Below, piece by piece: positions 11,232 to 27,994 of a stretch of DNA of 64,000 bases (position 1 is its first letter; the number at the start of each line of letters is the position of its first letter). This stretch comes from an uncultured virus (IMG/VR IMGVR_UViG_3300031182_000006) (taxonomy: Duplodnaviria; Heunggongvirae; Uroviricota; Caudoviricetes). A model generated the notes under the pieces. That model was not told where the DNA came from. It ran no database searches and was given only the letters and a program-made list of their open reading frames with translations. A program made the translations under genes and the position numbers. The stretch lies in the IMG/VR virus record IMGVR_UViG_3300031182_000006; one strand, given 5' to 3'.

Positions 11232-12257
11232 TTGGCAAATTATAAAGCAAAAGTTGCTTGGGATGCCGGACATCTTGAAGATACCTTCGAGGTGGAAGGT
11301 GGAAAAGGCGTTATTGTCAATGGTGAAAAATTTGAAGAACATTGGTTCAATCTTGCAGTAGCTAAGAAAGCTGCCGAACTTGGCAAATATAATGGTATTG
11401 AACCGGTGTTAACACATGAAGCTCTTGCTGGTAAATCTAAAGATAATCTAACGACTCGCACCAATAAAGCTAAATCTGAGAAAGTTGACCTCTTGTTCAG
11501 TATTCACGCTGATGCCAGCGGTAACGCAAATGCTAAAGGTCACTGGGTCTTCTACTGGCACGCTGATACCAAAGCCAAAAAGTTAGCTGAAATTTGGGAT
11601 AAGTGGGCTGACAAACTTCTTCCCAATAACGACAGAAATACCGTAGCTTGTTCTCCTAATTCGTGGGCAAACTTCCACATGTGTCGTGTTCCCGCTTCCT
11701 ACGGTATTCCTGCAATCCTTATTGAACATGCATTTATGACAAACCTTGAAGATCTTGCTTATCTTAAAAGTGAGGAATTTCGTGATCTCTGTGCTGAAGC
11801 TGCAGTTCGTGCTGCTTGTGAGTATCTTGGTATTCCTTTTAGTAAACCTCCTGCATCTGCACCTACGAAACCTTTTGAAAAAGATCCGAGTGTCAAGTTC
11901 ATTGACGTCCCCAAAGGTCATTGGGCAGTAAACGCTATCAAACTGGTTTCGGATGAAAGTATTATTAATGGTTTCACTGACGGGCGCTTCGGTATTGGTG
12001 AAGATGTGACCCGTGAACAACTGGCAGTTGTCATCTGCAATTTGATCACTAGTAGAAAGGTTAAGGTGATTAACATGGGTAAACCCACCAAATTCACGGA
12101 TGTCCCCGACAATCACTGGGCAAAAACTTCTATTGACGTTGTAAGTGCTGCTGGTATCATGGAGGGTTATCCCGACGGCCGTTTCGGTCTCGGCAATACC
12201 GTGAAACGCGAAGAACTTGCTGTGGTTGTTTCGAGACTTATTGATACTAAAAAATAA
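11232..12257 (+). CDS. endolysin: N-acetylmuramoyl-L-alanine amidase (Amidase_3) with two SLH domains
   Basis: DAGH, E, SIHAD, ILIEHAFMTN; C-terminal FIDVPKGHWA..GFTDGRF..VTREQLA and FTDVPDNHWA..GYPDGRF. Confidence 0.9.
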   Translation: MANYKAKVAWDAGHLEDTFEVEGGKGVIVNGEKFEEHWFNLAVAKKAAELGKYNGIEPVLTHEALAGKSKDNLTTRTNKAKSEKVDLLFSIHADASGNANAKGHWVFYWHADTKAKKLAEIWDKWADKLLPNNDRNTVACSPNSWANFHMCRVPASYGIPAILIEHAFMTNLEDLAYLKSEEFRDLCAEAAVRAACEYLGIPFSKPPASAPTKPFEKDPSVKFIDVPKGHWAVNAIKLVSDESIINGFTDGRFGIGEDVTREQLAVVICNLITSRKVKVINMGKPTKFTDVPDNHWAKTSIDVVSAAGIMEGYPDGRFGLGNTVKREELAVVVSRLIDTKK

Positions 12258-15753: not shown

Positions 15754-16188
15754 ATGGCAACTTTAAGAAAATTAAAAAACTTCAGCGAAAATAACCTAAC
15801 AACATTGGATAAAATTATCGCTATAACTCTCGGAGATTCCGATATAGATTGGTATGATGAAACCAAAATTTATAATGCCGATGATTTAATTATTAGGGTA
15901 AATCCTTCTACTGGGAAGAAGGAGATTTTATCTTGTAAAAAATCCGGGGCGACTGGTCCATTTGATATTAATGATTGGCAAGTTGTAAACATGACCAATA
16001 TTTCATCAACTAGCGTAATCCCAGTATCTGAAGAAGAACCTCCGAATCCAAAACCGAATATGATTTGGTTTAAAAATATGGGGGAGTCACCAGATTTCGG
16101 TGACAACATTATAATAATTATAGGTAATGTTAGTCTCGACGGAACAACCGAATTTTGGTTTGATTCCAATAACAGAGACGGCGAATAG
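15754..16188 (+). CDS. putative tail-associated protein
   Basis: 144 aa, VSEEEPPNPKPNMIWF motif typical of tail-fibre modules. Confidence 0.6.
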   Translation: MATLRKLKNFSENNLTTLDKIIAITLGDSDIDWYDETKIYNADDLIIRVNPSTGKKEILSCKKSGATGPFDINDWQVVNMTNISSTSVIPVSEEEPPNPKPNMIWFKNMGESPDFGDNIIIIIGNVSLDGTTEFWFDSNNRDGE

Positions 16189-16221
16189 AAAAACAGTAAA
16201 AGAAAGGGGGTAAGATGAGAA

Positions 16222-18375
16222 ATGAGCAGTAAAAACATTCAGATTCGTCACAAGAATGGTAGTGAATGGGATAATTTATACCCAAAAACAAAAGCGGAAT
16301 TAGTAGAAGGTCTTGATGAGCAACTTGCCGGAAAGGTTGATAAAGAAGAAGGTAAAGGTCTTTCTACTGAAGATTATACTACAGAAGAAAAGAATAAACT
16401 TGCGGGCATTGAGGAAGGAGCCAACAAATACGTTCATCCAACTAGTGCTGGTAATAAACATATTCCTTCTGGCGGTGCGCCTAACCAGGTACTTAAATAT
16501 GGCGGTTCGTCAGGAACCGCAACATGGGGTGCTCTGACATCTGCAGATATTCCTACATTGGCTCTTAGTAAGATTTCCGATGCAGGTACAGCAGCTTCCA
16601 GAGATATCGGTACTTCTGCTGGTAATGTGCCTGTATTGGATAGCAATGGTAAACTTGATGTTAATGTCCTTCCTGCAATTGCTATTTCGGATACTTTCGT
16701 TGTCGGAAGCGAAGGAGAAATGCTGGGTCTTACTGCGGAAGTTGGTGATATCGCGGTACGATCGGATATCAACAAAACATTCATTTTGAGAGCAGAACCT
16801 GCATCCGTAGTTGGCAACTGGCAAGAACTTTTGACTCCGACTTCCCCTGTACAATCTGTTGCAGGTAAAACCGGTGCAGTTACACTGGTTAAAGGTGACG
16901 TGGGACTCGGAAACGTCCAAAACTATGGAATAGCAACACAGGAAGAAGCAGAAGCCGGAACGTCCGATACCGCGTACATGACGCCGCTTAAAACAGCGCA
17001 GGCGATTGCTGCACTTGCACCCGCGCCGGATGCTTCGGAAGTTTCGCTTAGTTCACCGAATTTCACTTCTACCAACGTCCGGGATGGAATGGATGAACTT
17101 TTTCAATCTGTCAGTGATGGGAAAAATCAGATCGCTTCCGCCATCACTGACATGGGACAGTCTGCTTCAGGAGGCGACACGTTTGCGCAGTTGTCAAGCA
17201 AAATTCGGGACATCTCCAAGGACGCGAACGCGGCTGTTGGGGATGTTTTGACCGGTAAGACGTTTTATCAGGGCGGAGTAAAGCGCACCGGCACGATGCC
17301 CAATAACGGATCGGTTTCCCAAACGCTGACATCACAAGGCGAAGAATACACGATCCCGGAGGGATACCACGACGGCACCGGCACGGTCACGACCGACATC
17401 GTGAATCTGTCCGCAGGAAATATCCGAGCCGGTGCGACGGTAGGCGGCGTTGATGGTACGTTCACTAGCGACGCGACAGCCACGGCTGGTCAAATCTTGT
17501 CTGGCCGGACGGCGTATGTTAACGGCTCGAAGGTAACCGGCAGCATGATCAACAATGGAGCCGTCAGTCAAACCTTGACCACGCAGGGGGCGTCGTACAC
17601 AATCCCGGCAGGTTATCACAATGGCAGCGGCACAGTCACGGCCAATATCACCAACTTGACGGCGGCCAATATCAAGGCTGGTACGACGGTCGGCGGCGTA
17701 TCTGGAACATTCACAAGCGACGCAACCGCAACAGCCGCACAAATCTTGTCTGGCCGGACGGCGTATGTTAACGGCTCGAAGGTAACCGGCACGATGCCAG
17801 TCAAAACAAATGATTATGGCGCACCGCGTACAGGCCAAACTGGGCGTCTGTATGTGACACCGGAAGCAGGATACCATGACGGGACTGTAAGGGTCTATAC
17901 GGACGACGCTAATTTTAATGCTGCCAATATCAAGTCTGGGGTTACGCTGTTCGGAATAACCGGTACGTATGCGCCGATTTCCGTAGGTAGTACAACCCTG
18001 ACATTTAACCGATCCGGCTCCGGTAACAATGTTACGTCGATTATCTATTATGCGAATTACACGCCGCCCAAGACAAACTTTTTGGGGTCGTTCCAAATAC
18101 CCGTTACGTTCACAATCGGGAACATTGAATATAAAGGAGACCCGTTTAACAGCATCACGATCGGATATCCGACAAACCTAATCTTCGGCTATGGTTTGTA
18201 CATTGTCGACCCGACCGTTAATGCAGAAATACAAATCAGCGCCATTTATAATAGTAGCACTGGCCGTATTCAACTACAGATTGGTAACCCGTCCACAGCA
18301 AGTCCTAAAGCGTTGTTTACCAATATCAGCACCAATAGCTTTACAGCGGGTTTACGGTATGTTTCATGGGAGTGA
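16222..18375 (+). CDS. chimeric tail fibre protein (native N-terminus plus captured C-terminus)
   Basis: LYPKT, GANKYVHP, VQSVAGKTGAV modules; ~83-aa TIPxGYHxG/DATATA repeats; abrupt GC rise after ~16900. Confidence 0.85.
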   Translation: MSSKNIQIRHKNGSEWDNLYPKTKAELVEGLDEQLAGKVDKEEGKGLSTEDYTTEEKNKLAGIEEGANKYVHPTSAGNKHIPSGGAPNQVLKYGGSSGTATWGALTSADIPTLALSKISDAGTAASRDIGTSAGNVPVLDSNGKLDVNVLPAIAISDTFVVGSEGEMLGLTAEVGDIAVRSDINKTFILRAEPASVVGNWQELLTPTSPVQSVAGKTGAVTLVKGDVGLGNVQNYGIATQEEAEAGTSDTAYMTPLKTAQAIAALAPAPDASEVSLSSPNFTSTNVRDGMDELFQSVSDGKNQIASAITDMGQSASGGDTFAQLSSKIRDISKDANAAVGDVLTGKTFYQGGVKRTGTMPNNGSVSQTLTSQGEEYTIPEGYHDGTGTVTTDIVNLSAGNIRAGATVGGVDGTFTSDATATAGQILSGRTAYVNGSKVTGSMINNGAVSQTLTTQGASYTIPAGYHNGSGTVTANITNLTAANIKAGTTVGGVSGTFTSDATATAAQILSGRTAYVNGSKVTGTMPVKTNDYGAPRTGQTGRLYVTPEAGYHDGTVRVYTDDANFNAANIKSGVTLFGITGTYAPISVGSTTLTFNRSGSGNNVTSIIYYANYTPPKTNFLGSFQIPVTFTIGNIEYKGDPFNSITIGYPTNLIFGYGLYIVDPTVNAEIQISAIYNSSTGRIQLQIGNPSTASPKALFTNISTNSFTAGLRYVSWE
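16827..16901 (+). repeat. 75-bp direct repeat, copy 1
   Basis: identical to 18859-18933. Confidence 0.95.
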
Positions 18376-18425
18376 AATCGTGATGACGAGAGAGGACTCA
18401 TTATACAGATCGCATCGGCGGCCAA

Positions 18426-18578
18426 GCCGAGCAATATAAACAAATCACCGGATTTGATTATGAAGCGTAAGGCTCCGCCGAATAGGCGGGGCCTCATAAT
18501 CTGCACAGTGTGGTACAATTAGACGCTATGACGGCAGAAGAATATGAGCAGATTACGAGCGAGCCGTACACACCCTAA
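18426..18578 (+). pseudogene. two XkdX-like gene remnants
   Basis: AEQYKQITGFDYEA* (18426-18470) and MTAEEYEQITSEPYTP* (18528-18578) resemble the XkdX C-terminal ITxEEYxxITG motif. Confidence 0.65.
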
Positions 18579-18600
18579 TTAGGCGCAGAGACGTGTAATT

Positions 18601-18627
18601 AGACCCTGCTTAATGCGGGGTCTTTTT
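18601..18627 (+). terminator. intrinsic terminator
   Basis: agaccctgc-ttaat-gcggggtct followed by T-run. Confidence 0.8.
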
Positions 18628-18639
18628 GTTGACTTCGTA

Positions 18640-18668
18640 GTGACAAAAGGGAAATTTTATACGATAAT
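18640..18668 (+). promoter_or_regulatory. sigmaA-like promoter inside the captured segment
   Basis: GTGACA-17 bp-GATAAT. Confidence 0.5.
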
Positions 18669-18775
18669 AGTGTTAAAGTACTCGTAAAGTACGATTACGT
18701 TACCGTCGCTGGAAGGGGTGGAAAAGTTCCGATGGACTTTACGAGCCTTGGAGAGTACGGCGTAGGAATCGCGTC

Positions 18776-19453
18776 ATGACTTCTCCCGATGGTATAAACT
18801 GGACGATTCGTTCAACTCCGGCGGATAACAACTGGTATTCCGTCACTTATGGCAACGGACTTTTGACTCCGACTTCCCCTGTACAATCTGTTGCAGGTAA
18901 AACCGGTGCAGTTACACTGGTTAAAGGTGACGTTGGTCTTGATAATGTTGAAAACTACGGTATCGCTTCTCAAGCTGATGCTGAAGCCGGAACAGCAAAT
19001 AATAAATACATGACCCCTGCGAGAGTTAAGCAAGCAATTGATGCGTTTGCTGCTCCTAAAGAGCATCAACATGTCGCTTCGGATATCACTCAAGATTCGA
19101 CTCACCGTTTTGTAACTGATGCAGAAAAAGCTGCATGGAATGCAAAAGCAGACAAAACGGTAGCTACTACCAGCAATAACGGCTTGATGTCGTCCGCTGA
19201 TAAAGCAAAACTCGATGGAATCGAAGCTGGCGCCAATAAGTACGTACATCCGACTGGCGATGGTAATCTCCATGTGCCTCCAACTGGAACCAGCAACAAC
19301 AATAAAGTGCTGAAAGCAGGGGCTACTGCTGGAAGCCTTTCCTGGGGTTATGTTAATTGGAATGAAGTAGATGGTAAACCTGTTAACCTTGCATCTATTG
19401 TGGTTTCTGGTACTGAACCTACAAATGCTGATTTCTGGTATCAGGAAATTTAA
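18776..19453 (+). pseudogene. displaced native C-terminal half of the tail fibre gene
   Basis: foreign MTSPDGINWT...YGNGL fragment joined to repeat copy 2 and native-GC sequence; in frame with 16222 if the insert is removed. Confidence 0.7.
18859..18933 (+). repeat. 75-bp direct repeat, copy 2
   Basis: identical to 16827-16901. Confidence 0.95.
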
Positions 19454-19670: not shown

Positions 19671-20420
19671 ATGGCAAAAAATATACTACAGAAACAATAC
19701 GTACCTGGTGTCGGATGGGTTGAGCTTCATCCAATTACTAAAGCGTCCAATATTATAGATTCAAACGGTCTTAGTGTACAAGAGCATATTGATGCTAAAA
19801 ATCCACATGGAACTGATAAAAGTGATGTAGGTCTTGGTAATGTTGAAAACTATGGTATTGCATCTAAAACTGAAGCCGAAGCCGGAACTGCAAGTAACAA
19901 GTACATGACACCACAAAGAACTTCCCAGGCAATTGCAGCTTTGTCGCCTGTGAAGTCGGTTGCTGGTAAGACGGGTGCAGTGACTCTCGTAAAGGGAGAT
20001 GTAGGTCTCGGAAACGTTGAGAACTATGGCATTGCATCTAAAACTGAAGCCGAAGAGGGAACTGCAAGTAATAAGTATATGACTCCTGAGAGAACATCTC
20101 AGGCGATTGCTGTTCAAGCCCAGGCTATTGCAGATGAAGTTGAAAACAGATCAAAAGAGTATGCTGATCTGTTGATGGAACAGAAGATTATTGAAATTCC
20201 TTCTAGGTCAGGTAAAGACGAGAATGGAATTTTCACGATCGTTGAATATTACAGACCAAATAATACATTAGCACGAAAAACCGAACTTAGCGGTGGGTCG
20301 TCTCCGAATTATACAACAAGAACCATAACCTTCTATGCAGAAGACGGTATGACTGTGACAAAAACAGTCACAAGAACCTTAATTTATGATGAGGATGGAG
20401 ATTTCCTGCGAGAAGAATAA
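19671..20420 (+). CDS. tail fibre-related protein
   Basis: two copies of VGLGNVENYGIASKTEAExGTASNKYMTP; AACA-N6-TA at 19592-19603. Confidence 0.75.
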   Translation: MAKNILQKQYVPGVGWVELHPITKASNIIDSNGLSVQEHIDAKNPHGTDKSDVGLGNVENYGIASKTEAEAGTASNKYMTPQRTSQAIAALSPVKSVAGKTGAVTLVKGDVGLGNVENYGIASKTEAEEGTASNKYMTPERTSQAIAVQAQAIADEVENRSKEYADLLMEQKIIEIPSRSGKDENGIFTIVEYYRPNNTLARKTELSGGSSPNYTTRTITFYAEDGMTVTKTVTRTLIYDEDGDFLREE

Positions 20421-20702
20421 AAATAAGGGATAAGGTATTTAACCTTATCCTTTATTTTTTTACATTGAAATTCACTTCAAAAATATCATCCTAATTACAG
20501 TTATTTTTCCATCGTTAATAGAGATTAATAAAAATAAGAATTTCGTGACAAAAACAGATACATAATAAGATAAAAAATATCCTTAAATGTCATATGATTA
20601 ATTCTATTTCATCATAACCAAAAAATTGTGAGATCTCAAATCTCGGGAACTCAAATTGTAATTGAGTTTGTGAGTAAAATTATAGATTAATAAAAAATTG
20701 GG

Positions 20703-22841
20703 GTGAAAGAAGTGAACGATTTAATTTATCATGGGTTAATTGGGAAAAAAATTGATTCTGTAGAGGTGCTAAATAATGAATTTATTGCTACAGATGACAA
20801 TGTGGAGCTGGCTAGTTCATATAATTTACCTAATACTGGACGCTCTGTCTCATTCTCTCCCGATGGTCAATATATAGCTGTAGGACATAGTGGTTCTCCT
20901 TATTTTACTCTATTAAAAAGAAATGGAGATAATGTAAAACTAGCTAGTAATTATATATTACCTAGTACTGGCTATGGTGTATCATTCTCTCCCGATGGTC
21001 AATATATAGCTGTAGCACATACTGCTTCTCCTAATTTTACTTTACTAAAAAGAAATGGAGATAATGTAGAATTAGCTAGTACTTATACATTACCTGGCAA
21101 TGGAAACTCTGTATCATTCTCTCCTGATGGTCAATATATAGCTGTAGGATATGATCTTTCTCCTCGTTTTACTTTACTAAAAAGAAATGGAGATAATGTA
21201 GAATTAGCTAGTAATTATATATTACCTGGTATTGGACGTTCTGTCTCATTCTCTCCCGATGGTCAATATATAGCTGTAGGGCATTATGCTTCTCCTTATT
21301 TTACTCTATTAAAAAGAAATGGAGATACTGTAGAACTAGCTAGTACTTATACATTACCTAGTGATGGCTTAGGTGTATCATTCTCTCCTGATGGTCAATA
21401 TATAGCTGTAGCACATAATGGTTCTCCTTATTTTACTTTACTAAAAAGAAATGGAGATAATGTAGAATTAGCTAGTACTTATACACTATCTAACTATGGC
21501 TTTGGTGTATCATTCTCTCCCGATGGTCAATATATAGCTGTAGGATATTATGGTTCTCCTTATTTTACTTTACTAAAAAGAAATGGAGATAATGTAGAAT
21601 TAGCTAGTACTTATACATTACCTGGCAATGGCACGGGTGTATCATTCTCTCCCGATGGTCAATATATAGCTGTAGGACATTTTAGTTCTCCTTATTTTAC
21701 TCTATTAAAAAGAAATGGAGTACAAGAAGCCATCGAAATTAAAACTAAAGTAAATGTTATTAAAGAAATTGATGGTCAGTTAAAAGAGGTTAAAAGTAAT
21801 AAGATATTTAGAGATGTAAAAGAATTAGTTTATAAGAATAATTATGAAAAAGTACTACTAGCTGATACTTATACATTACCCAATATCGCCACGGGTGTAT
21901 CATTTTCTCCCGATGGTCAATATATAGCTGTAGGACATTATGATTCTCCTTATTTTACTTTACTAAAAAGAAATGGAGATAATGTAGAATTAGCTAGTAA
22001 TTATACATTAACTGGTAATGCTGGAGGTGTATCATTCTCTCCTGATGGTAAATATATAGCTGTAGCATATTATGGTTCTCCTTATTTTACTCTATTAAAA
22101 AGAAATGGAGATAATGTAGAACTAGCTAGTACTTATACATTACCTAGTTATGGCCATGGTGTATTATTCTCTCCCGATGGTCAATATATAGCTGTAGCAC
22201 ATTGGGGTTCTCCTCATTTTACTTTACTAAAAAGAAATGGAGATAATGTAGAACTAGCTAGTAATTATACATTACCTGATATTGGCTTGAGAGTATCATT
22301 CTCTCCCGATGGTCAATATATAGCTGTAGGACATTATGGTTCTCCTTATTTTACTCTATTAAAAAGAAATGGAGATACTGTAGAACTAGCTAGTACTTAT
22401 ACATTACCTGGTGCTACCGAAAATGTATCATTCTCTCCCGATGGTCAATATATAGCTGTAGGATATTATGGTTCTCCTTATTTTACTCTATTAAAAAGAA
22501 ATGGGGATACTGTAGAATTAGCTAGTAATTATACATTACCTAATATTGGATACTCTGCCCCATTCTCTCCCGATGGTCAATATATAGCTGTAGCACATAA
22601 TGGTTCTCCTTATTTTACTTTACTAAAAAGAAATGGAGATAATGTAGAATTAGCTAGTACTTATACATTACCTGGTGATGGCTATAGTGTATCATTCTCT
22701 CCTGATGGTCAATATATAGCTGTAGGACATAATGGTTCTCCTTATTTTACTTTACTAAAAGCAGGAGGAACTTTTTCAAAAACCCCTCCAATCTTTATTG
22801 AATATAGAGGTAAAAGATATAAGATGCGTACAATTAATTGA
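20703..22841 (+). CDS. tandem 7+7-blade beta-propeller protein A, putative receptor-binding protein
   Basis: 14 copies of a 44-aa WD40-like repeat (SFSPDGQYIAV), split 7+7 by a ~40-aa linker. Confidence 0.85.
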   Translation: MKEVNDLIYHGLIGKKIDSVEVLNNEFIATDDNVELASSYNLPNTGRSVSFSPDGQYIAVGHSGSPYFTLLKRNGDNVKLASNYILPSTGYGVSFSPDGQYIAVAHTASPNFTLLKRNGDNVELASTYTLPGNGNSVSFSPDGQYIAVGYDLSPRFTLLKRNGDNVELASNYILPGIGRSVSFSPDGQYIAVGHYASPYFTLLKRNGDTVELASTYTLPSDGLGVSFSPDGQYIAVAHNGSPYFTLLKRNGDNVELASTYTLSNYGFGVSFSPDGQYIAVGYYGSPYFTLLKRNGDNVELASTYTLPGNGTGVSFSPDGQYIAVGHFSSPYFTLLKRNGVQEAIEIKTKVNVIKEIDGQLKEVKSNKIFRDVKELVYKNNYEKVLLADTYTLPNIATGVSFSPDGQYIAVGHYDSPYFTLLKRNGDNVELASNYTLTGNAGGVSFSPDGKYIAVAYYGSPYFTLLKRNGDNVELASTYTLPSYGHGVLFSPDGQYIAVAHWGSPHFTLLKRNGDNVELASNYTLPDIGLRVSFSPDGQYIAVGHYGSPYFTLLKRNGDTVELASTYTLPGATENVSFSPDGQYIAVGYYGSPYFTLLKRNGDTVELASNYTLPNIGYSAPFSPDGQYIAVAHNGSPYFTLLKRNGDNVELASTYTLPGDGYSVSFSPDGQYIAVGHNGSPYFTLLKAGGTFSKTPPIFIEYRGKRYKMRTIN

Positions 22842-25203
22842 TATGGGGATTTAAAATAAAAGATTTATATTTACATGAAATAATAAAAAGACATGCTTCA
22901 GCAAAAATACTAAAAAAAAATAAATTCAATTATACTGATGATGGACTAAATCTTATAAGATCATATATTTCATCATATATTGTATATGATGTGTCATTTC
23001 CCCCTTTGGTCAATTTATTCACGGTTCGTGACACGCTTTTCACCTTATTAAAGGCTAGTGATATATTTAAATCAAACCCCTTCCCAACTATTGTCGAATG
23101 TAGAGGGAGAAAATATAGAGTTAGGGAAAAATCTTAATAAAGGAGGTAAGTAATTTGGAAGAGCTTTATTTTCACGAATTGCTACGACAAGGCGTTTCAG
23201 TAAATATTCTAAATAATAAATTTATTGCTACAGATGACAATGTGGAGCCGGCTAGTTCATATAAATTGCCTAACTATGGCTATAGTGTTTCATTCTCTCC
23301 CGATGGTCAATATATAGCTGTAGGACATGTTGGTTCTCCTCGTTTTACTTTACTAAAAAGAAATGGAGATAATGTAGAATTAGCTAGTACTTATACATTA
23401 TCCGATACTGGACGCTCTATCTCATTCTCTCCCGATGGTCAATATATAGCTATAGGACATAGCGGTTCTCCTGGTTTTACTTTACTAAAAAGAAATGGAG
23501 ATAATGTAGAACTAGCTACTAAATATACATTACCTGATGTTGGATATGGTACGGCATTCTCTCCCGATGGTCAATATATAGCTGTGGGACATAATGGTTC
23601 TCCTTATTTTACTCTATTAAAAAGAAATGGAGATAATGTAGAACTAGCTAGTACTTATACATTATCCGCTACTGGACGTTCTGTCTCATTCTCTCCCGAT
23701 GGTCAATATATAGCTGTAGCACATGCTGGTTCTCCTCGTTTTACTTTACTAAAAAGAAATGGAGATAATGTAGAACTAGCTAGTACTTATACATTACCTA
23801 GTGATAGCTTTGATGCATCATTCTCTCCTGATGGTCAATATATAGCTGTAGCACATTATGTTTCTCCTCATTTTACTCTATTAAAAAGAAATGGAGATAA
23901 TGTAGAACTAGCTAGTACTTATACATTACCTAGTACTGGCTTGGGTGTATCATTCTCTCCCGATGGTCGATATATAGCTGTAGCACATTATGGTTCTCCT
24001 TATTTTACTTTACTAAAAAGAAATGGAGATAATGTAGAACTAGCTAGTACTTATACATTACCTAGTGTCGCCATGGATGTATCATTCTCTCCCGATGGTC
24101 AATATATAGCTGTAGGATATATTAATTCTCCTCCTTATTTTACTCTATTAAAAAGAAATGGAGTACAAGAAGCCATCGAAATTAAAACTAAAGTAAATGT
24201 TATTAAAGAAATTGATGGTCAGTTAGAAGAGGTTAAAGGTAATAAGATATTTAGAGATGTAAAAGAATTAGTTTATAAGAATAATTATGAAAAAGTATTA
24301 CTAGCTAGTACTTATACATTACCTTTTACTAGCTTGGATGTATCATTCTCTCCCGATGGTCAATATATAGCTGTAGAACATAATAGTTCTCCTTATTTTA
24401 CTTTACTAAAAAGAAATGGAGATAATGTAGAACTAGCTAGTACTTATACATTACCTGGTGGTGCCGAAGGTATATCATTCTCTCCCGATGGCAAATATAT
24501 AGCTGTAGCACATTATGGTTCTCCTTATTTTACTTTACTAAAAAGAAATGGAGATAATGTAGAATTAGCTAGTACTTATACATTATCTGACGGTGGCTAT
24601 GGTGTATCATTCTCTCCCGATGGTCAATATATAGCTGTAGGACATCATGGTTCTCCTTATTTTACTCTATTAAAAAGAAATGGAGATAATGTAGAACTAG
24701 CTAGTAATTATACATTACCTAGTAATGGCTTGGGTGTATCATTTTCTCCCGATGGTCAATATATAGCTGTAGGATATAATGGTTTTCCTTATTTTACTTT
24801 ACTAAAAAGAAATGGAGATAATGTAGAATTAGCTAGTACTTATACATTACCTGGTACTAGCTATGGTGTATCATTCTCTCCCGATGGTCAATATATAGCA
24901 GTGGGACATTTTGGTTCTCCTTATTTTACTCTATTAAAAAGAAATGGAGATAATGTAGAATTAGCTAGTACTTATACATTACCTGGTAATGCCGAAGATG
25001 TATCATTCTCTCCCGATGGTCAATATATAGCTGTAGGACATTGGGGTTCTCCTTGTTTTACTCTATTAAAAAGAAATGGAGATAATGTAGAACTAGCTAG
25101 TAATTATACATTACCTGGTACTAGCTATGGTGTATCATTCTCTCCCGATGGTCAATATATAGCAGTGGGACATAGCGATTCTCCTTATTTTACCCTATTA
25201 AAA
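20796..25203 (+). repeat. 28 coding tandem repeats of about 132 bp in four arrays of seven
   Basis: near-invariant tcattctctcccgatggtcaatatatagctgtag and ctaaaaagaaatggagataatgtagaa frameworks. Confidence 0.95.
22838..23137 (+). CDS. collapsed paralog of the propeller genes
   Basis: shares LYxHE..NKF..TDD start, FTLLKA, and ExRGxxY end, with one degenerate blade. Confidence 0.65.
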   Translation: MIWGFKIKDLYLHEIIKRHASAKILKKNKFNYTDDGLNLIRSYISSYIVYDVSFPPLVNLFTVRDTLFTLLKASDIFKSNPFPTIVECRGRKYRVREKS

Positions 25204-25278
25204 GCAGGAGGAACTTTTTCATCACAAAATCCTATTATTATAAAATATAGAGATGTCGAATACGAACTTGTGTGGTAA
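23155..25278 (+). CDS. tandem 7+7-blade beta-propeller protein B, putative receptor-binding protein
   Basis: same architecture and near-identical linker as 20703..22841; AAGGAGG RBS. Confidence 0.85.
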   Translation: MEELYFHELLRQGVSVNILNNKFIATDDNVEPASSYKLPNYGYSVSFSPDGQYIAVGHVGSPRFTLLKRNGDNVELASTYTLSDTGRSISFSPDGQYIAIGHSGSPGFTLLKRNGDNVELATKYTLPDVGYGTAFSPDGQYIAVGHNGSPYFTLLKRNGDNVELASTYTLSATGRSVSFSPDGQYIAVAHAGSPRFTLLKRNGDNVELASTYTLPSDSFDASFSPDGQYIAVAHYVSPHFTLLKRNGDNVELASTYTLPSTGLGVSFSPDGRYIAVAHYGSPYFTLLKRNGDNVELASTYTLPSVAMDVSFSPDGQYIAVGYINSPPYFTLLKRNGVQEAIEIKTKVNVIKEIDGQLEEVKGNKIFRDVKELVYKNNYEKVLLASTYTLPFTSLDVSFSPDGQYIAVEHNSSPYFTLLKRNGDNVELASTYTLPGGAEGISFSPDGKYIAVAHYGSPYFTLLKRNGDNVELASTYTLSDGGYGVSFSPDGQYIAVGHHGSPYFTLLKRNGDNVELASNYTLPSNGLGVSFSPDGQYIAVGYNGFPYFTLLKRNGDNVELASTYTLPGTSYGVSFSPDGQYIAVGHFGSPYFTLLKRNGDNVELASTYTLPGNAEDVSFSPDGQYIAVGHWGSPCFTLLKRNGDNVELASNYTLPGTSYGVSFSPDGQYIAVGHSDSPYFTLLKAGGTFSSQNPIIIKYRDVEYELVW

Positions 25279-25355: not shown

Positions 25356-25655
25356 ATGCCAATCGTAAGTGGTGAACAAATCGCCCCTGATAAAATCCGG
25401 GTGAGGTCGATAACTTATACAACGAACACTCCACCGAACGACAATTGGTATTCGGTTCCATCAGTACCCGAATGGCCAGAGGTTGAAATCGGGAAGCGAC
25501 CTGAGATGTATTTTAATCCACAGACAAAGGAGTTCAGCTTTGAGATTGTTGATGCTCCTTTGACTCCGGAACAAGAAAAAGATCTCGAAATTCAACGTCT
25601 GAACCAGCTTCTTGACGATGCTACAAGCTTATTATTAGAAAACGAGGTGTTGTAA
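25356..25655 (+). CDS. putative tail fibre assembly chaperone
   Basis: small protein after fibre genes, MYFNPQTKEF motif, C-terminal coiled coil. Confidence 0.6.
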   Translation: MPIVSGEQIAPDKIRVRSITYTTNTPPNDNWYSVPSVPEWPEVEIGKRPEMYFNPQTKEFSFEIVDAPLTPEQEKDLEIQRLNQLLDDATSLLLENEVL

Positions 25656-25656
25656 T

Positions 25657-25788
25657 ATGAGCGGAATTGATCAAAGAAAGCTTAATCTTTACAAGTGGAT
25701 GCTGGAAAAGGGTAAAATTCAGTACAACGAAATTCCAGAGAATTATCGTAGCCAGATCAATCCTCCGCAGGAACAGTCTGAGGAGTAA
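25657..25788 (+). CDS. small tail-associated protein (43 aa, not in ORF track)
   Basis: MSGIDQRKLNLYKWMLEKGKIQYNEIPENYRSQI..., GAGGTG RBS, terminator near 25793-25826. Confidence 0.7.
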   Translation: MSGIDQRKLNLYKWMLEKGKIQYNEIPENYRSQINPPQEQSEE

Positions 25789-25864: not shown

Positions 25865-27994
25865 TTATTTCCTCTTGCTCTTCAGAGACATAATCGGCAT
25901 ACTGCGTAATTTGAAACTCTTGACAGCCTGCTCCATAAAATACTCTTGGACATTGAATGGAACAGGACTTTTCAAAAGTTCGTACTGATTGTCTTTATTG
26001 AGAATGTAGGTGTTGAATGTGTCGCGGAAATACATTTTCAAAATAGACAAGAGTTTATTTCTGGAATTTTCGTCCGTAATCGGAACCAGAAGTTCAACCC
26101 GTCTGTCCAAATTCCGCGTCAACATATCAGCACTTGAAATGAAAATATCTGACTTTCCATTATTGTAGAAGAAGTAAATTCTACTATGCTCTAGAAATCT
26201 ACCAACAACACTCTTGATGCTGATGTTCGAATTGATTTTCTTCATCGAGCATATACCTCTACAGATAATGGATATCTTGACACCCTGCTCAGAGGCCTCA
26301 TACAGCTTCTTGATAATACCCAGATCAGAAAGGGAGTTAAGCTTCAACGTAATGAAAGCTTGTCTACCCTTTTGAGCATTCTCGATCTCTCGATCGATAA
26401 GCTGATACAATCTCAATCTCAGATTGTACGGAGCATAGAAAATTTTGCTCACTTCGTCTCTGGGATCGGAGAAACCTGACAAGACATTAAATATCGTCAA
26501 CAGGTCATCCGCTATTTTGCTGCTGGATGTGAAGTAGGAAATATCGGTATAGATTGACGCAGTCTTGTCGTTGTAATTTCCTGTACCGATATGGCAATAC
26601 GTTTTGAGATTTTTCTTTCCTTTCCTCACAACCAATATAAATTTACAATGTGTTTTCAACTCCTCAATACCATAGATCAATTTACAGCCGGATACTTTTA
26701 GTTTTTCTATCAACGACATATTTCTATTCTCATCAAACCTTGCTTTAATTTCGAGAAGAACACTTACCTGCTTTCCTCTTTCAGCAGCCCTACACAACGC
26801 CTCGACAATCGGGGACTCCGCAGAAGATACTCTATACAGAGTCAATTTGATTGCCAAGACATCATTATCCTCGGCCGCATGTTCGAGGAATTTGATAACC
26901 GGTGTGAACGACTCGTAAGGGTGATGAAGAATGAGATCGCCGTTGTCGATAGCAGTAAACATATCGTGCTCGCCGATCAGATCTTCTGGATACTGAGGGT
27001 TGAACGGGTCGTACTCGTAAGCCGCATTTCTTATCGGCTTACTTAAGAGAAACGACATGTCTACGATGTTTTCACATTTAAACACTTGCCTCTTGTCAAT
27101 GTCGAAGATTTTGGTCAGAAGTTTGAGGGTTTCCTTAGGAACATCACTGTCGATATCCATGAAGATGGGTTTACTAAACTCCCGTTTAATGAGAGTTTCC
27201 CTCATTCGGTCGACAATATAAATATCCCGTCTTCCCTCAATTTCAATATCCGCCTCACGAATGATTCTCATACATCCCCTATAGATGATACTCTTGTTGA
27301 TAAATACCTTGTGGAGAAAATTAAAGATAATATCCTCCAACAAGATATATCGTTCTTCATCGCTCTCGTCAGTCTCAATCTTGTACAAACGATCAAGACC
27401 ATGGAGTGGGATGATGGACATTACATTCAGATTTGGATTTTTCTTGTCCCCTAGAGAAGCTATTATGCATAGCTGCTTAGATTTAATAAGGGGAAATTCT
27501 TTGGTTGAGTCAAAGGTGATCGGGGTCAGCAACGGATAAATGTTTCTTTCGAAAAGCTTTCTTACATAATCAACTTCCTTTTCACTGAGATGCTTGAACT
27601 TACAAATCGTGAAATTGTTTTTACGCAGTTTCTTTCTCAGTTTTTCAAAGCTTTCTTGCTGGATTTCTTTGAAAGAAATAATTTCCCGGAGCAAGAGTTC
27701 ATATTCTTGCTCCGGGAGAAGACCAGCAATATCCGTTTCTGTATACCCCAATCTGAGTTTATTAAGGATAGATGAAAATCTAACCATAATAAACTCATCC
27801 AGGTTCGATTCCGTGATACCCAAGAACTTAAGTCTCTCCAAAAGAGGAACCTCAGTTCTCATAGTTTGATGGAGAACCCTTTTATTGAACTCCATCCAAC
27901 TCAATTCACGATTCATATAGAATCCTGGATTATTAAACTTTGACCTAATCCTATCTCTTTCAACGTCGAAGAGATCACTAAGATTGTTAGTCAT
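25865..27994 (-). CDS. ppk1: polyphosphate kinase 1
   Basis: NRELSW, SNLDEF, HHPYESF, TLYR, KARFDE, KTHCK, GTGNYN, GRFLEHSR, RNLDRRVE; full length 709 aa. Confidence 0.95.
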   Translation of the reverse strand: MTNNLSDLFDVERDRIRSKFNNPGFYMNRELSWMEFNKRVLHQTMRTEVPLLERLKFLGITESNLDEFIMVRFSSILNKLRLGYTETDIAGLLPEQEYELLLREIISFKEIQQESFEKLRKKLRKNNFTICKFKHLSEKEVDYVRKLFERNIYPLLTPITFDSTKEFPLIKSKQLCIIASLGDKKNPNLNVMSIIPLHGLDRLYKIETDESDEERYILLEDIIFNFLHKVFINKSIIYRGCMRIIREADIEIEGRRDIYIVDRMRETLIKREFSKPIFMDIDSDVPKETLKLLTKIFDIDKRQVFKCENIVDMSFLLSKPIRNAAYEYDPFNPQYPEDLIGEHDMFTAIDNGDLILHHPYESFTPVIKFLEHAAEDNDVLAIKLTLYRVSSAESPIVEALCRAAERGKQVSVLLEIKARFDENRNMSLIEKLKVSGCKLIYGIEELKTHCKFILVVRKGKKNLKTYCHIGTGNYNDKTASIYTDISYFTSSSKIADDLLTIFNVLSGFSDPRDEVSKIFYAPYNLRLRLYQLIDREIENAQKGRQAFITLKLNSLSDLGIIKKLYEASEQGVKISIICRGICSMKKINSNISIKSVVGRFLEHSRIYFFYNNGKSDIFISSADMLTRNLDRRVELLVPITDENSRNKLLSILKMYFRDTFNTYILNKDNQYELLKSPVPFNVQEYFMEQAVKSFKLRSMPIMSLKSKRK

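Follow-up and report, generated by a model that had tools for sequence, protein, structure and literature searches.

Two adjacent genes in a 64,000-nucleotide (nt) stretch of DNA from an uncultured Caudoviricetes virus (IMG/VR record IMGVR_UViG_3300031182_000006; the whole stretch is hereafter the window) each encode 14 similar repeats that vary mainly in two short segments, which raises the question of what these arrays do and how their differences arise. An earlier note, made from the sequence of the window, had read them as antibody-like propeller arrays with four diversifying binding surfaces. We compared gene A (20703..22841, + strand, 712 amino acids (aa)) and gene B (23155..25278, + strand, 707 aa) with their relatives, and give a probability of about 65% to the reading that both are late-made, recombination-shuffled, WD40-like double-propeller binding heads at the fibre tip of a jumbo phage with a Firmicute host. 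That the feature is strain-variable and driven by recombination is well supported, and from sequence it is probably a receptor-binding or adhesive fibre head.

As the earlier note had stated, both genes hold two sets of seven 44-aa (132-bp) units, here called blades. The open reading frames (ORFs) contain 14 units each at 44-aa spacing, interrupted by a spacing of 86/87 aa after unit 7, and Tandem Repeats Finder returned a period of 132 in both. In gene A, blades 1-7 (20802..21725, + strand) and blades 8-14 (21852..22775, + strand) are separated by a non-repeat linker (21726..21851, + strand), which is near-constant across alleles and nearly the same in gene B (0-4 differences per 138 nt in the eight genes compared); the blades of gene B lie at 23242-24168 and 24295-25218. 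The N-terminus of gene A carries an HG tag, instead of which gene B has HE. GTG at 20712 is more likely the start of gene A than 20703, since a purine-rich stretch precedes it and the length of the N-terminus then equals that of the alleles. Of the 44 columns, 19 had a single amino acid and 9 a single codon throughout the 28 units, and entropy peaked at columns 11-15, after TYTLP, and at columns 28-31 and 34, so variation is concentrated in two short segments, as had been claimed. Unit DNA within A and within B differed on average at 15.8-17.1 of 108 nt (~85% identity). The framework was not near-invariant at synonymous sites, as the note had it, since its silent divergence (pS) was 0.137, mainly from a few dimorphic codons. 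The proposed likeness to antibody paratopes held for some residues: at the seven most variable columns of 139 blades, Tyr (19.2% vs. 4.6% in window proteins), Gly (24.7 vs. 4.9), Ser (13.2 vs. 6.0) and Asn (10.1 vs. 6.4) were enriched, but Asp (4.7 vs. 6.8), His (1.5 vs. 1.6) and Trp (0.9 vs. 0.8) were not. Columns 37-38 showed a double silent swap, CTA TTA or TTA CTA, near 50:50 in nearly all genes (73 vs. 59 of 139 blades), the two halves of which almost never come apart.

Sequence and structure comparisons agreed on the seven-blade propeller closure that had been expected. Pfam matches over the cut-off included WD40 (112 bits), PD40 (141 bits) and other propeller families, and AlphaFold2 run on the single sequence predicted four strands per unit (mean predicted local distance difference test (pLDDT) 81.4, predicted template modelling score 0.51), with pLDDT mostly 80-95 in the repeats and below 50 in the N-terminus, linker and C-terminus. 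Foldseek matched double propellers, the best PDB match being the highly repetitive propeller 2ymu (E = 5e-33, 34% identity). These results support a model of A and B as four 7-blade WD40-like propellers in total. The canonical WD40 signature is GH...WD; in these blades strand a is not preceded by GH, nor is strand c followed by WD, hence WD40-like rather than canonical. When predicted secondary structure was set against entropy, the first variable segment corresponded to the d-a loop and the start of strand a, and the second to the b-c loop. Both would lie on the top face, consistent with the claim that the variable loops share one face, which was assigned from the topology in the available text of PMC1805685. 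The loops of the opposite face (SPDG and NGD turns) hardly vary, although they are as exposed as the variable loops of the top face.

Variation among related phages was expected by the earlier note, and we found near-complete replacement of blades between conserved flanks. The viral and metagenome contigs scanned gave 141 blades from 15 genes on eight contigs; excluded from this set were duplicate records, the gene B of phage L003 as a near-copy, partial blades and old degenerate blades. Of the 141 blades, 139 were distinct, and they comprised 135 different loop combinations and 103 different first loops. Relative L022 has a polyphosphate kinase (PPK) 99.6% identical to that of the window, yet none of nine same-position blades was shared, and the same was true of four blades in L014, where the upstream spacer is 100% identical, and of 14 in L034, where the flanks are 98-99% identical to those of the window gene. 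Close relatives diverged from the window at ~35% of loop bases and ~6% of framework bases, with 0-4 differences per 138 nt in the linker. Over 43 gene pairs only two same-position blades were identical (both L003/L022), and positional similarity was faint at most, with P < 0.05 in 5 of 43 pairs where ~2 are expected. The blade count was 7+7 in all seven complete full-length genes seen, and isolated inserts held seven. Gene B occurred elsewhere as fully different 14-blade alleles (L034, L029), and with four blades in L020 and one in L022, while the distant phage L003 (PPK 34% identical) carries a gene B 1 nt off that of the window beside a fully different gene A.

The entire cassette of that phage (L003 2409-7435) was 94.75% identical to that of the window despite 34% PPK protein identity, which suggests recent horizontal transfer of the tail-tip module. 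Because the array was unchanged in the contigs L001 and L002 and gene B has a near-copy in a distant phage, alleles are stable enough to pass between phages, which counts against constant hypermutation. The sequencing runs were checked on contigs. The A-B junction allele was unchanged in run X1 and, in run X6, from 22731 onward; X6 was prepared from RNA, but with contigs of up to 40 kb it may contain DNA, and we did not count the junction as expression. In X4, a depth of 286 out of 518 carried the window's first loop of gene B, which is a hint only, as depths are not shares and the start of gene A fits too. GenBank phages contained only distant relatives of gene A (seven records, best 35%). 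A decayed one-blade paralogue (22838..23137, + strand, 99 codons), comprising an N-terminus, one blade and a C-terminus, is probably a pseudogene from array collapse. Its alignment scores were 92 with the N-terminus of B (42 for the best shuffle), 80 with the C-terminus of A (45 for the best shuffle) and 74 with a one-blade allele (54 for the best shuffle). It lacks the HG tag and is open in the window and, with an identical sequence, in L003, with frameshifts in all four of the other relatives translated (L020, L022, L029 and L034).

We also assessed how the loops diversify. Loop codons showed linkage to the silent markers next to them (P = 8e-9 and 3e-27) but none to markers farther away (P = 0.2-1.0), and r2 inside the unit dropped with distance from 0.13 to 0.02. 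Framework distances clustered by gene (P = 0.016 without L028), a private framework variant was present in all four blades of L028, and arrays were reduced in L020 (four blades) and L022 (one blade), where assembly collapse is possible. The linkage pattern, collapses and private framework are, with good support, the trace of short-tract conversion and of unequal exchange from blade to blade. The 28-blade pool of the window contained 981 of the 1080 loop codons of other alleles, a figure inflated by common codons, and 13 of 108 whole first-loop segments. Pairwise nonsynonymous divergence (pN) was 0.43 in loops and 0.04 in the framework, and pS was 0.19 and 0.14, such that loop pN exceeded framework pS by a factor of 3.2 (1.7-7.0) and loop pS by 2.2 (95% interval 1.2-6.0, frequency-weighted). 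The loop columns were picked on the window, and 111 held-out blades were used for an allele count, which gave 1.95 (P = 7e-4) relative to framework silent changes and 1.03 relative to loop silent changes; this count saturates and is biased toward silent steps. The framework is under purifying selection (nonsynonymous to silent ratio (N/S) 0.41-0.46, P < 0.01).

The position of gene A bears on its probable role. The short fibre/adaptor gene upstream of it (19671..20420, + strand, 249 aa; PHROG virion structural, E = 2e-32) ends in an unnamed domain of ~70 aa with the motif SGG.SP.YTTRT, for which an Atlas search returned no family. This fibre-end domain was found in 816 clusters at E ≤ 0.001, closes the annotated tail fibre of phage D6E, the head gene of which is unannotated, and persists in L003 (which has YadA-head repeats), L020 and L029, where the remainder of the fibre has been exchanged. 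At 34 of 35 other loci the ORF that follows the domain has HG among its first 14 residues, compared with 0 of 70 control ORFs of the window, the 35 loci being related to each other and not independent; L049 lacks the tag, and L041 has HG near its start while L040 does not. The order of a fibre with this domain, an HG head, a ~100-aa gene and a ~45-aa gene is conserved in temperate and jumbo phages. Slot heads were mostly 200-620 aa, 9 of 29 had weak propeller matches, and the single-sequence fold of one (L057) gave no usable model (pLDDT 41.5). The cassette is widespread in Firmicute phages and unnamed (window 19671-20420, L045-L081).

Downstream of the two arrays, a 99-aa gene (25356..25655, + strand), a putative fibre-assembly or chaperone protein, matched the same-slot gene of four unrelated phages (HHalign 96.4%) and gave the Atlas leads YomQ_N (0.91) and, under the bar, Caudo_TAP_N. 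It is followed by a 43-aa gene in the XkdX slot (25657..25788, + strand), kept in L003, L020 and L029 and without a Pfam match, whose equivalents in other phages matched Phage_XkdX in two of four cases. The assignment to a tail locus is backed by the PHROG-matched fibre genes upstream and the conserved slot. The two small downstream genes described as chaperone-like had no naming match in Pfam or NCBIfam. As for the late-type promoter, AACA-N6-TA at 20553..20564 (+ strand) matches the AR9 late-promoter consensus as given in the accessible part of PMC5312081, but this motif was present in 8 of 43 upstream segments vs. 6.0 in shuffles (P = 0.24), and because it is not enriched we did not use it as support.

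Gene A probably docks on the fibre-end domain through non-repeat segments that include the HG tag, a conclusion to which structural modelling lends weak support. Two N-terminal types of gene A pair with two fibre-end types, a pattern that linkage alone could explain. The modelled complex of a fibre-domain trimer with A scored 0.52 vs. 0.00 for the best of three controls, with runs agreeing in at least 37% of contacts and a partner pLDDT of at least 81. In the calibration of this score, 116 of 157 solved pairs and 2 of 215 mismatched pairs attained the mark; among these, 18 solved pairs and both mismatched ones did so with a score at or below 0.60. Because docking was already likely beforehand from synteny, the model raises its odds only modestly.

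Taken together, we propose that A and B would be late proteins that sit as binding heads at the tail-fibre tip, and that the HG tag and other non-repeat segments of A would hold it to the conserved domain at the C-terminus of the upstream fibre protein. Because all blades have one DNA framework, any blade could donate to any other, and short patches would pass between blades of a single gene, of different genes and of different phages in a co-infection. Such exchange would keep the framework uniform and re-deal a finite pool of loop segments, supplied by point mutation, while selection would hold the 7-blade count and the framework and favour or preserve varied top-face loops. The propellers, the varying face and the tail-tip slot agree with the receptor-binding modules proposed earlier. 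The repeat anatomy, the fold model, the place of the variable loops, the allelic turnover, the trace of recombination and the conserved slot are results, whereas receptor binding, virion location, docking and selection as the cause are inferences. A bolder version, in which the system is a self-donating diversifier free of reverse transcriptase (RT) whose plug-in heads, HG-docked on the widespread fibre-end domain and with identical blade frameworks as recombination handles, re-deal 28 loop pairs fast enough for host switching within a population, possibly helped by locally raised mutation, and whose blade re-invades other virion proteins, is a tentative possibility that we consider doubtful as a whole.

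Several observations weigh against the proposal of shuffled receptor-binding heads. The complex score lies in the weak range of a tool whose calibration set is unlike this job, 20 of 29 slot heads had no propeller match, and in one homologue (P0001) the propeller is N-terminal to the fibre. Gene B has HE, not HG, and is down to four blades or one in two relatives, and may thus be dispensable. Genome-wide concerted evolution by framework distance was not significant (P = 0.098, and 0.65 without L028), and no clear recombinase was found, with a RecA-like match under the cut-off in G002 and none in G003. Short-read assemblies can scramble such arrays, according to the available text of PMC12222747. 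Elevated loop dN/dS, as the earlier note anticipated, was seen in the pairwise pN/pS of 2.2 but not in the allele count, where N/S in loops was 0.92-1.48 and not significantly above 1. Silent variation was also ~2 times higher in loops than in the framework (P = 0.001-0.047), which local hypermutation or relaxed constraint would predict as well. The loop pattern could come from balancing selection accompanied by hitch-hiking, from local hypermutation or from relaxed constraint, and positive selection on the loops is only partly shown.

Two rival explanations concern the function. The propellers could bind something other than an infection receptor, acting as adhesins for S-layer, biofilm or plant matter, as decoys or as intracellular binders of host defence proteins, which has an outside chance of being correct. 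Known WD40 arrays of the HNWD kind are intracellular sensors, as the accessible portion of PMC1805685 describes, related blades occur in apparent cellular surface proteins (P0015, P0021), neither B nor the relic with one blade has the HG tag, and one phage carries 42 such blades over four genes; however, A occupies a fibre-to-XkdX slot conserved in temperate and jumbo phages, and no NTPase or effector domain is attached to A or B. Alternatively, A and B might be young propellers amplified from one blade, of the Pereira and Lupas type, whose surface loops drift under relaxed constraint while recombination homogenises the framework, with no adaptive binding role. Continuous amplification and decay of such propellers, as well as recently amplified ones from viruses, are on record in the available part of 10.1101/2022.03.13.484165, the main text of which, so far as accessible, does not contain the word 'phage', and an allele-count N/S of ~1 in loops, collapsed alleles and a pseudogene would all be expected. 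Drift of exposed loops fits poorly with the near-invariance of the equally exposed opposite face, with loop residues skewed to Tyr, Gly, Ser and Asn with no Lys, with exactly 7+7 blades in every complete gene and seven in isolated inserts, and with the frequency-weighted loop pN/pS of 2.2, and we regard this explanation as having a slim chance.

Other rivals concern the source of the variation. A targeted mutator, either a diversity-generating retroelement (DGR) acting in trans or another localized hypermutation, could write the loop codons, and would account for the third-position T/C kept in several loop columns, as in AAY-derived codons, and for the raised silent variation in loops; the genome of the window is also covered only in part, the nearest record being rated 67% complete. 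RVT_1 was absent from all three records searched (two rated 100% complete), from two further fragments and from the window ORFs scanned, no further copy of the unit was found in the window that could be a template, and unit copies in relatives (G002-G004) sit in coding arrays, including all strong matches in G003. Adenine occupied the variable positions of columns 13, 15 and 31 in 0-14% of blades, loop codons move in blocks with silent markers, and a 20-nt pattern matched genomes nine times, one being real blades in a prophage-like array and eight short matches only. We rejected A and B as DGR targets because these searches gave no RT, template or adenine signature and because of the block linkage to silent markers, and the mutator explanation in general is improbable. 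The term antibody-like, in implying a diversifying machinery, likewise overstates the case, because the array is identical in two other assemblies and alleles are stable across them. It is still less probable that allelic turnover is mostly short-read mis-assembly of the repeat, for which the precedent is HNWD arrays of similar unit length mis-assembled from Illumina reads, as reported in the accessible text of PMC12222747; L022, which has two blades in common with L003 and a one-blade gene B, could itself be a chimera or a collapsed array. The 139 blades hold 103 different first-loop sequences, a diversity that mis-assembly is unable to produce, no exact repeat in the window arrays is as long as 100 nt, and the alleles recur in L001 and L002 (100% match), in the gene B of another phage, in an insert of L029 found again in L008, and in the junction seen in X1 and X6.

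Blades of this kind were also found in other proteins. Relatives carry fresh 7-blade copies that terminate a cadherin-like stalk or are embedded in LamG-bearing proteins (L005 7874-10945; L006 10126-15183 and 2027-6967; L027 1898-7822), and the fresh copy in L027 lies among older degenerate blades of the same kind, which suggests repeated re-amplification. Among 17 homologues selected from the 120 listed, tail-fibre domains preceded the propeller in P0013, P0020, P0025, P0061 and P0065, and tail-spike domains followed it in one. P0025 is a tail-fibre protein with variable-loop blades on a different framework, and P0015 and P0021 have related, repetitive variable-loop blades in proteins that resemble cellular surface proteins. 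A same-family array on a Firmicutes contig from a metagenome-assembled genome (L087 1-1200), probably a prophage, is followed by the ~100-aa gene and an amidase-like gene.

The window is, by its gene content, part of a jumbo-phage genome, with a multisubunit RNA polymerase fragment, a DnaB-like helicase, a PPK and an amidase with SLH domains, and parts of two viral contigs of 163 kb and 212 kb are identical to it. The Amidase_3 endolysin with SLH domains (11232-12257) indicates a host with an S-layer, and these domains together with the related array on a Firmicutes contig suggest a Firmicute host. The phage-encoded PPK (PPK1, 25865-27994) adjoins the tail cassette, as it does in L003. Farther upstream on the + strand lie a tail-fibre-like gene of 717 aa (16222..18375; PHROG tail and minor tail protein matches, to E = 5e-17) and a tail-fibre-like ORF of 225 aa, possibly a fragment (18776..19453; PHROG virion structural and tail matches). 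The 400 bp between them (18376-18775) contain no long ORF, within a GC-richer fibre block (~50% GC at 16000-19000), and the ORF after this gap opens with an apparent BNR-type repeat fragment; the region is possibly a broken or recently acquired fibre gene.

If A and B are receptor-binding heads, their natural alleles would make it practicable to test how a binding repertoire arises from concerted evolution and selection, and their blades would be a natural constant-scaffold binder library. The conserved cassette, with its 816 clusters and HG head, would then mark the receptor-binding gene, still without annotation, of many Firmicute phages. Known routes by which phage receptor-binding proteins diversify are DGRs, invertases, point mutation and module swaps, and exchange of repeats resembling that of fungal NOD-like receptors, with one diversified face, would be a mode beyond these if the role holds true. 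We found no description of this mode in phages in the literature searched, which covered subscription journals thinly; the supplements of 10.1101/2022.03.13.484165 may list such phage proteins.

The closest mechanistic counterparts are the HNWD/NWD proteins of Podospora anserina (het-d, het-e), which, in the available text of PMC1805685 and PMC12222747, share with A and B high-identity WD40 repeats (>80% DNA identity), repeat exchange within and between genes, a double 7-blade propeller and length polymorphism. The codons under selection in HNWD repeats are variable pairs in the d-a loop and the b-c turn on the top face, the loops that also vary in A and B, as far as the accessible text of PMC1805685 describes. 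In contrast to HNWD proteins, A and B are viral, lie in a tail-fibre cassette, consist of repeats and short tails only, without a NACHT NTPase, HET or effector domain, and have a 44-aa blade with a longer b-c loop and a count of mostly 7+7; no source of mutation similar to repeat-induced point mutation was found for them. WRAP (2ymu) is similar in having 14 near-identical blades as two 7-blade propellers, but it is part of a STAND ATPase and, in the source available in part, is read as a recent amplification, whereas the loops of A and B are saturated and their alleles turn over. DGR targets also combine a hypervariable surface with a probable phage receptor-binding protein; A and B differ from them in that no RT or template was found, in not being adenine-templated, in block inheritance and in having 28 targets per genome. 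In position, gene A resembles T-even gp38 on gp37, which, in the portion of PMC3157838 available, is encoded separately, immediately behind the fibre gene, and attaches by an N-terminal part that covaries with the fibre C-terminus. The hypervariable segments of gp38 lie between conserved motifs that act as crossover points, to which the blade frameworks can be likened, but the fold is unrelated and no match to gp38 or its glycine-rich motifs was found in Pfam or PHROG. Four segments are swapped between phages in gp38, as opposed to 28 near-identical potential donor blades within one genome here, and docking and receptor binding are demonstrated for gp38 in that same text, whereas docking of gene A comes from a model. 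By analogy, A and B would work like HNWD repeats in a gp38-like position, as members of neither family.

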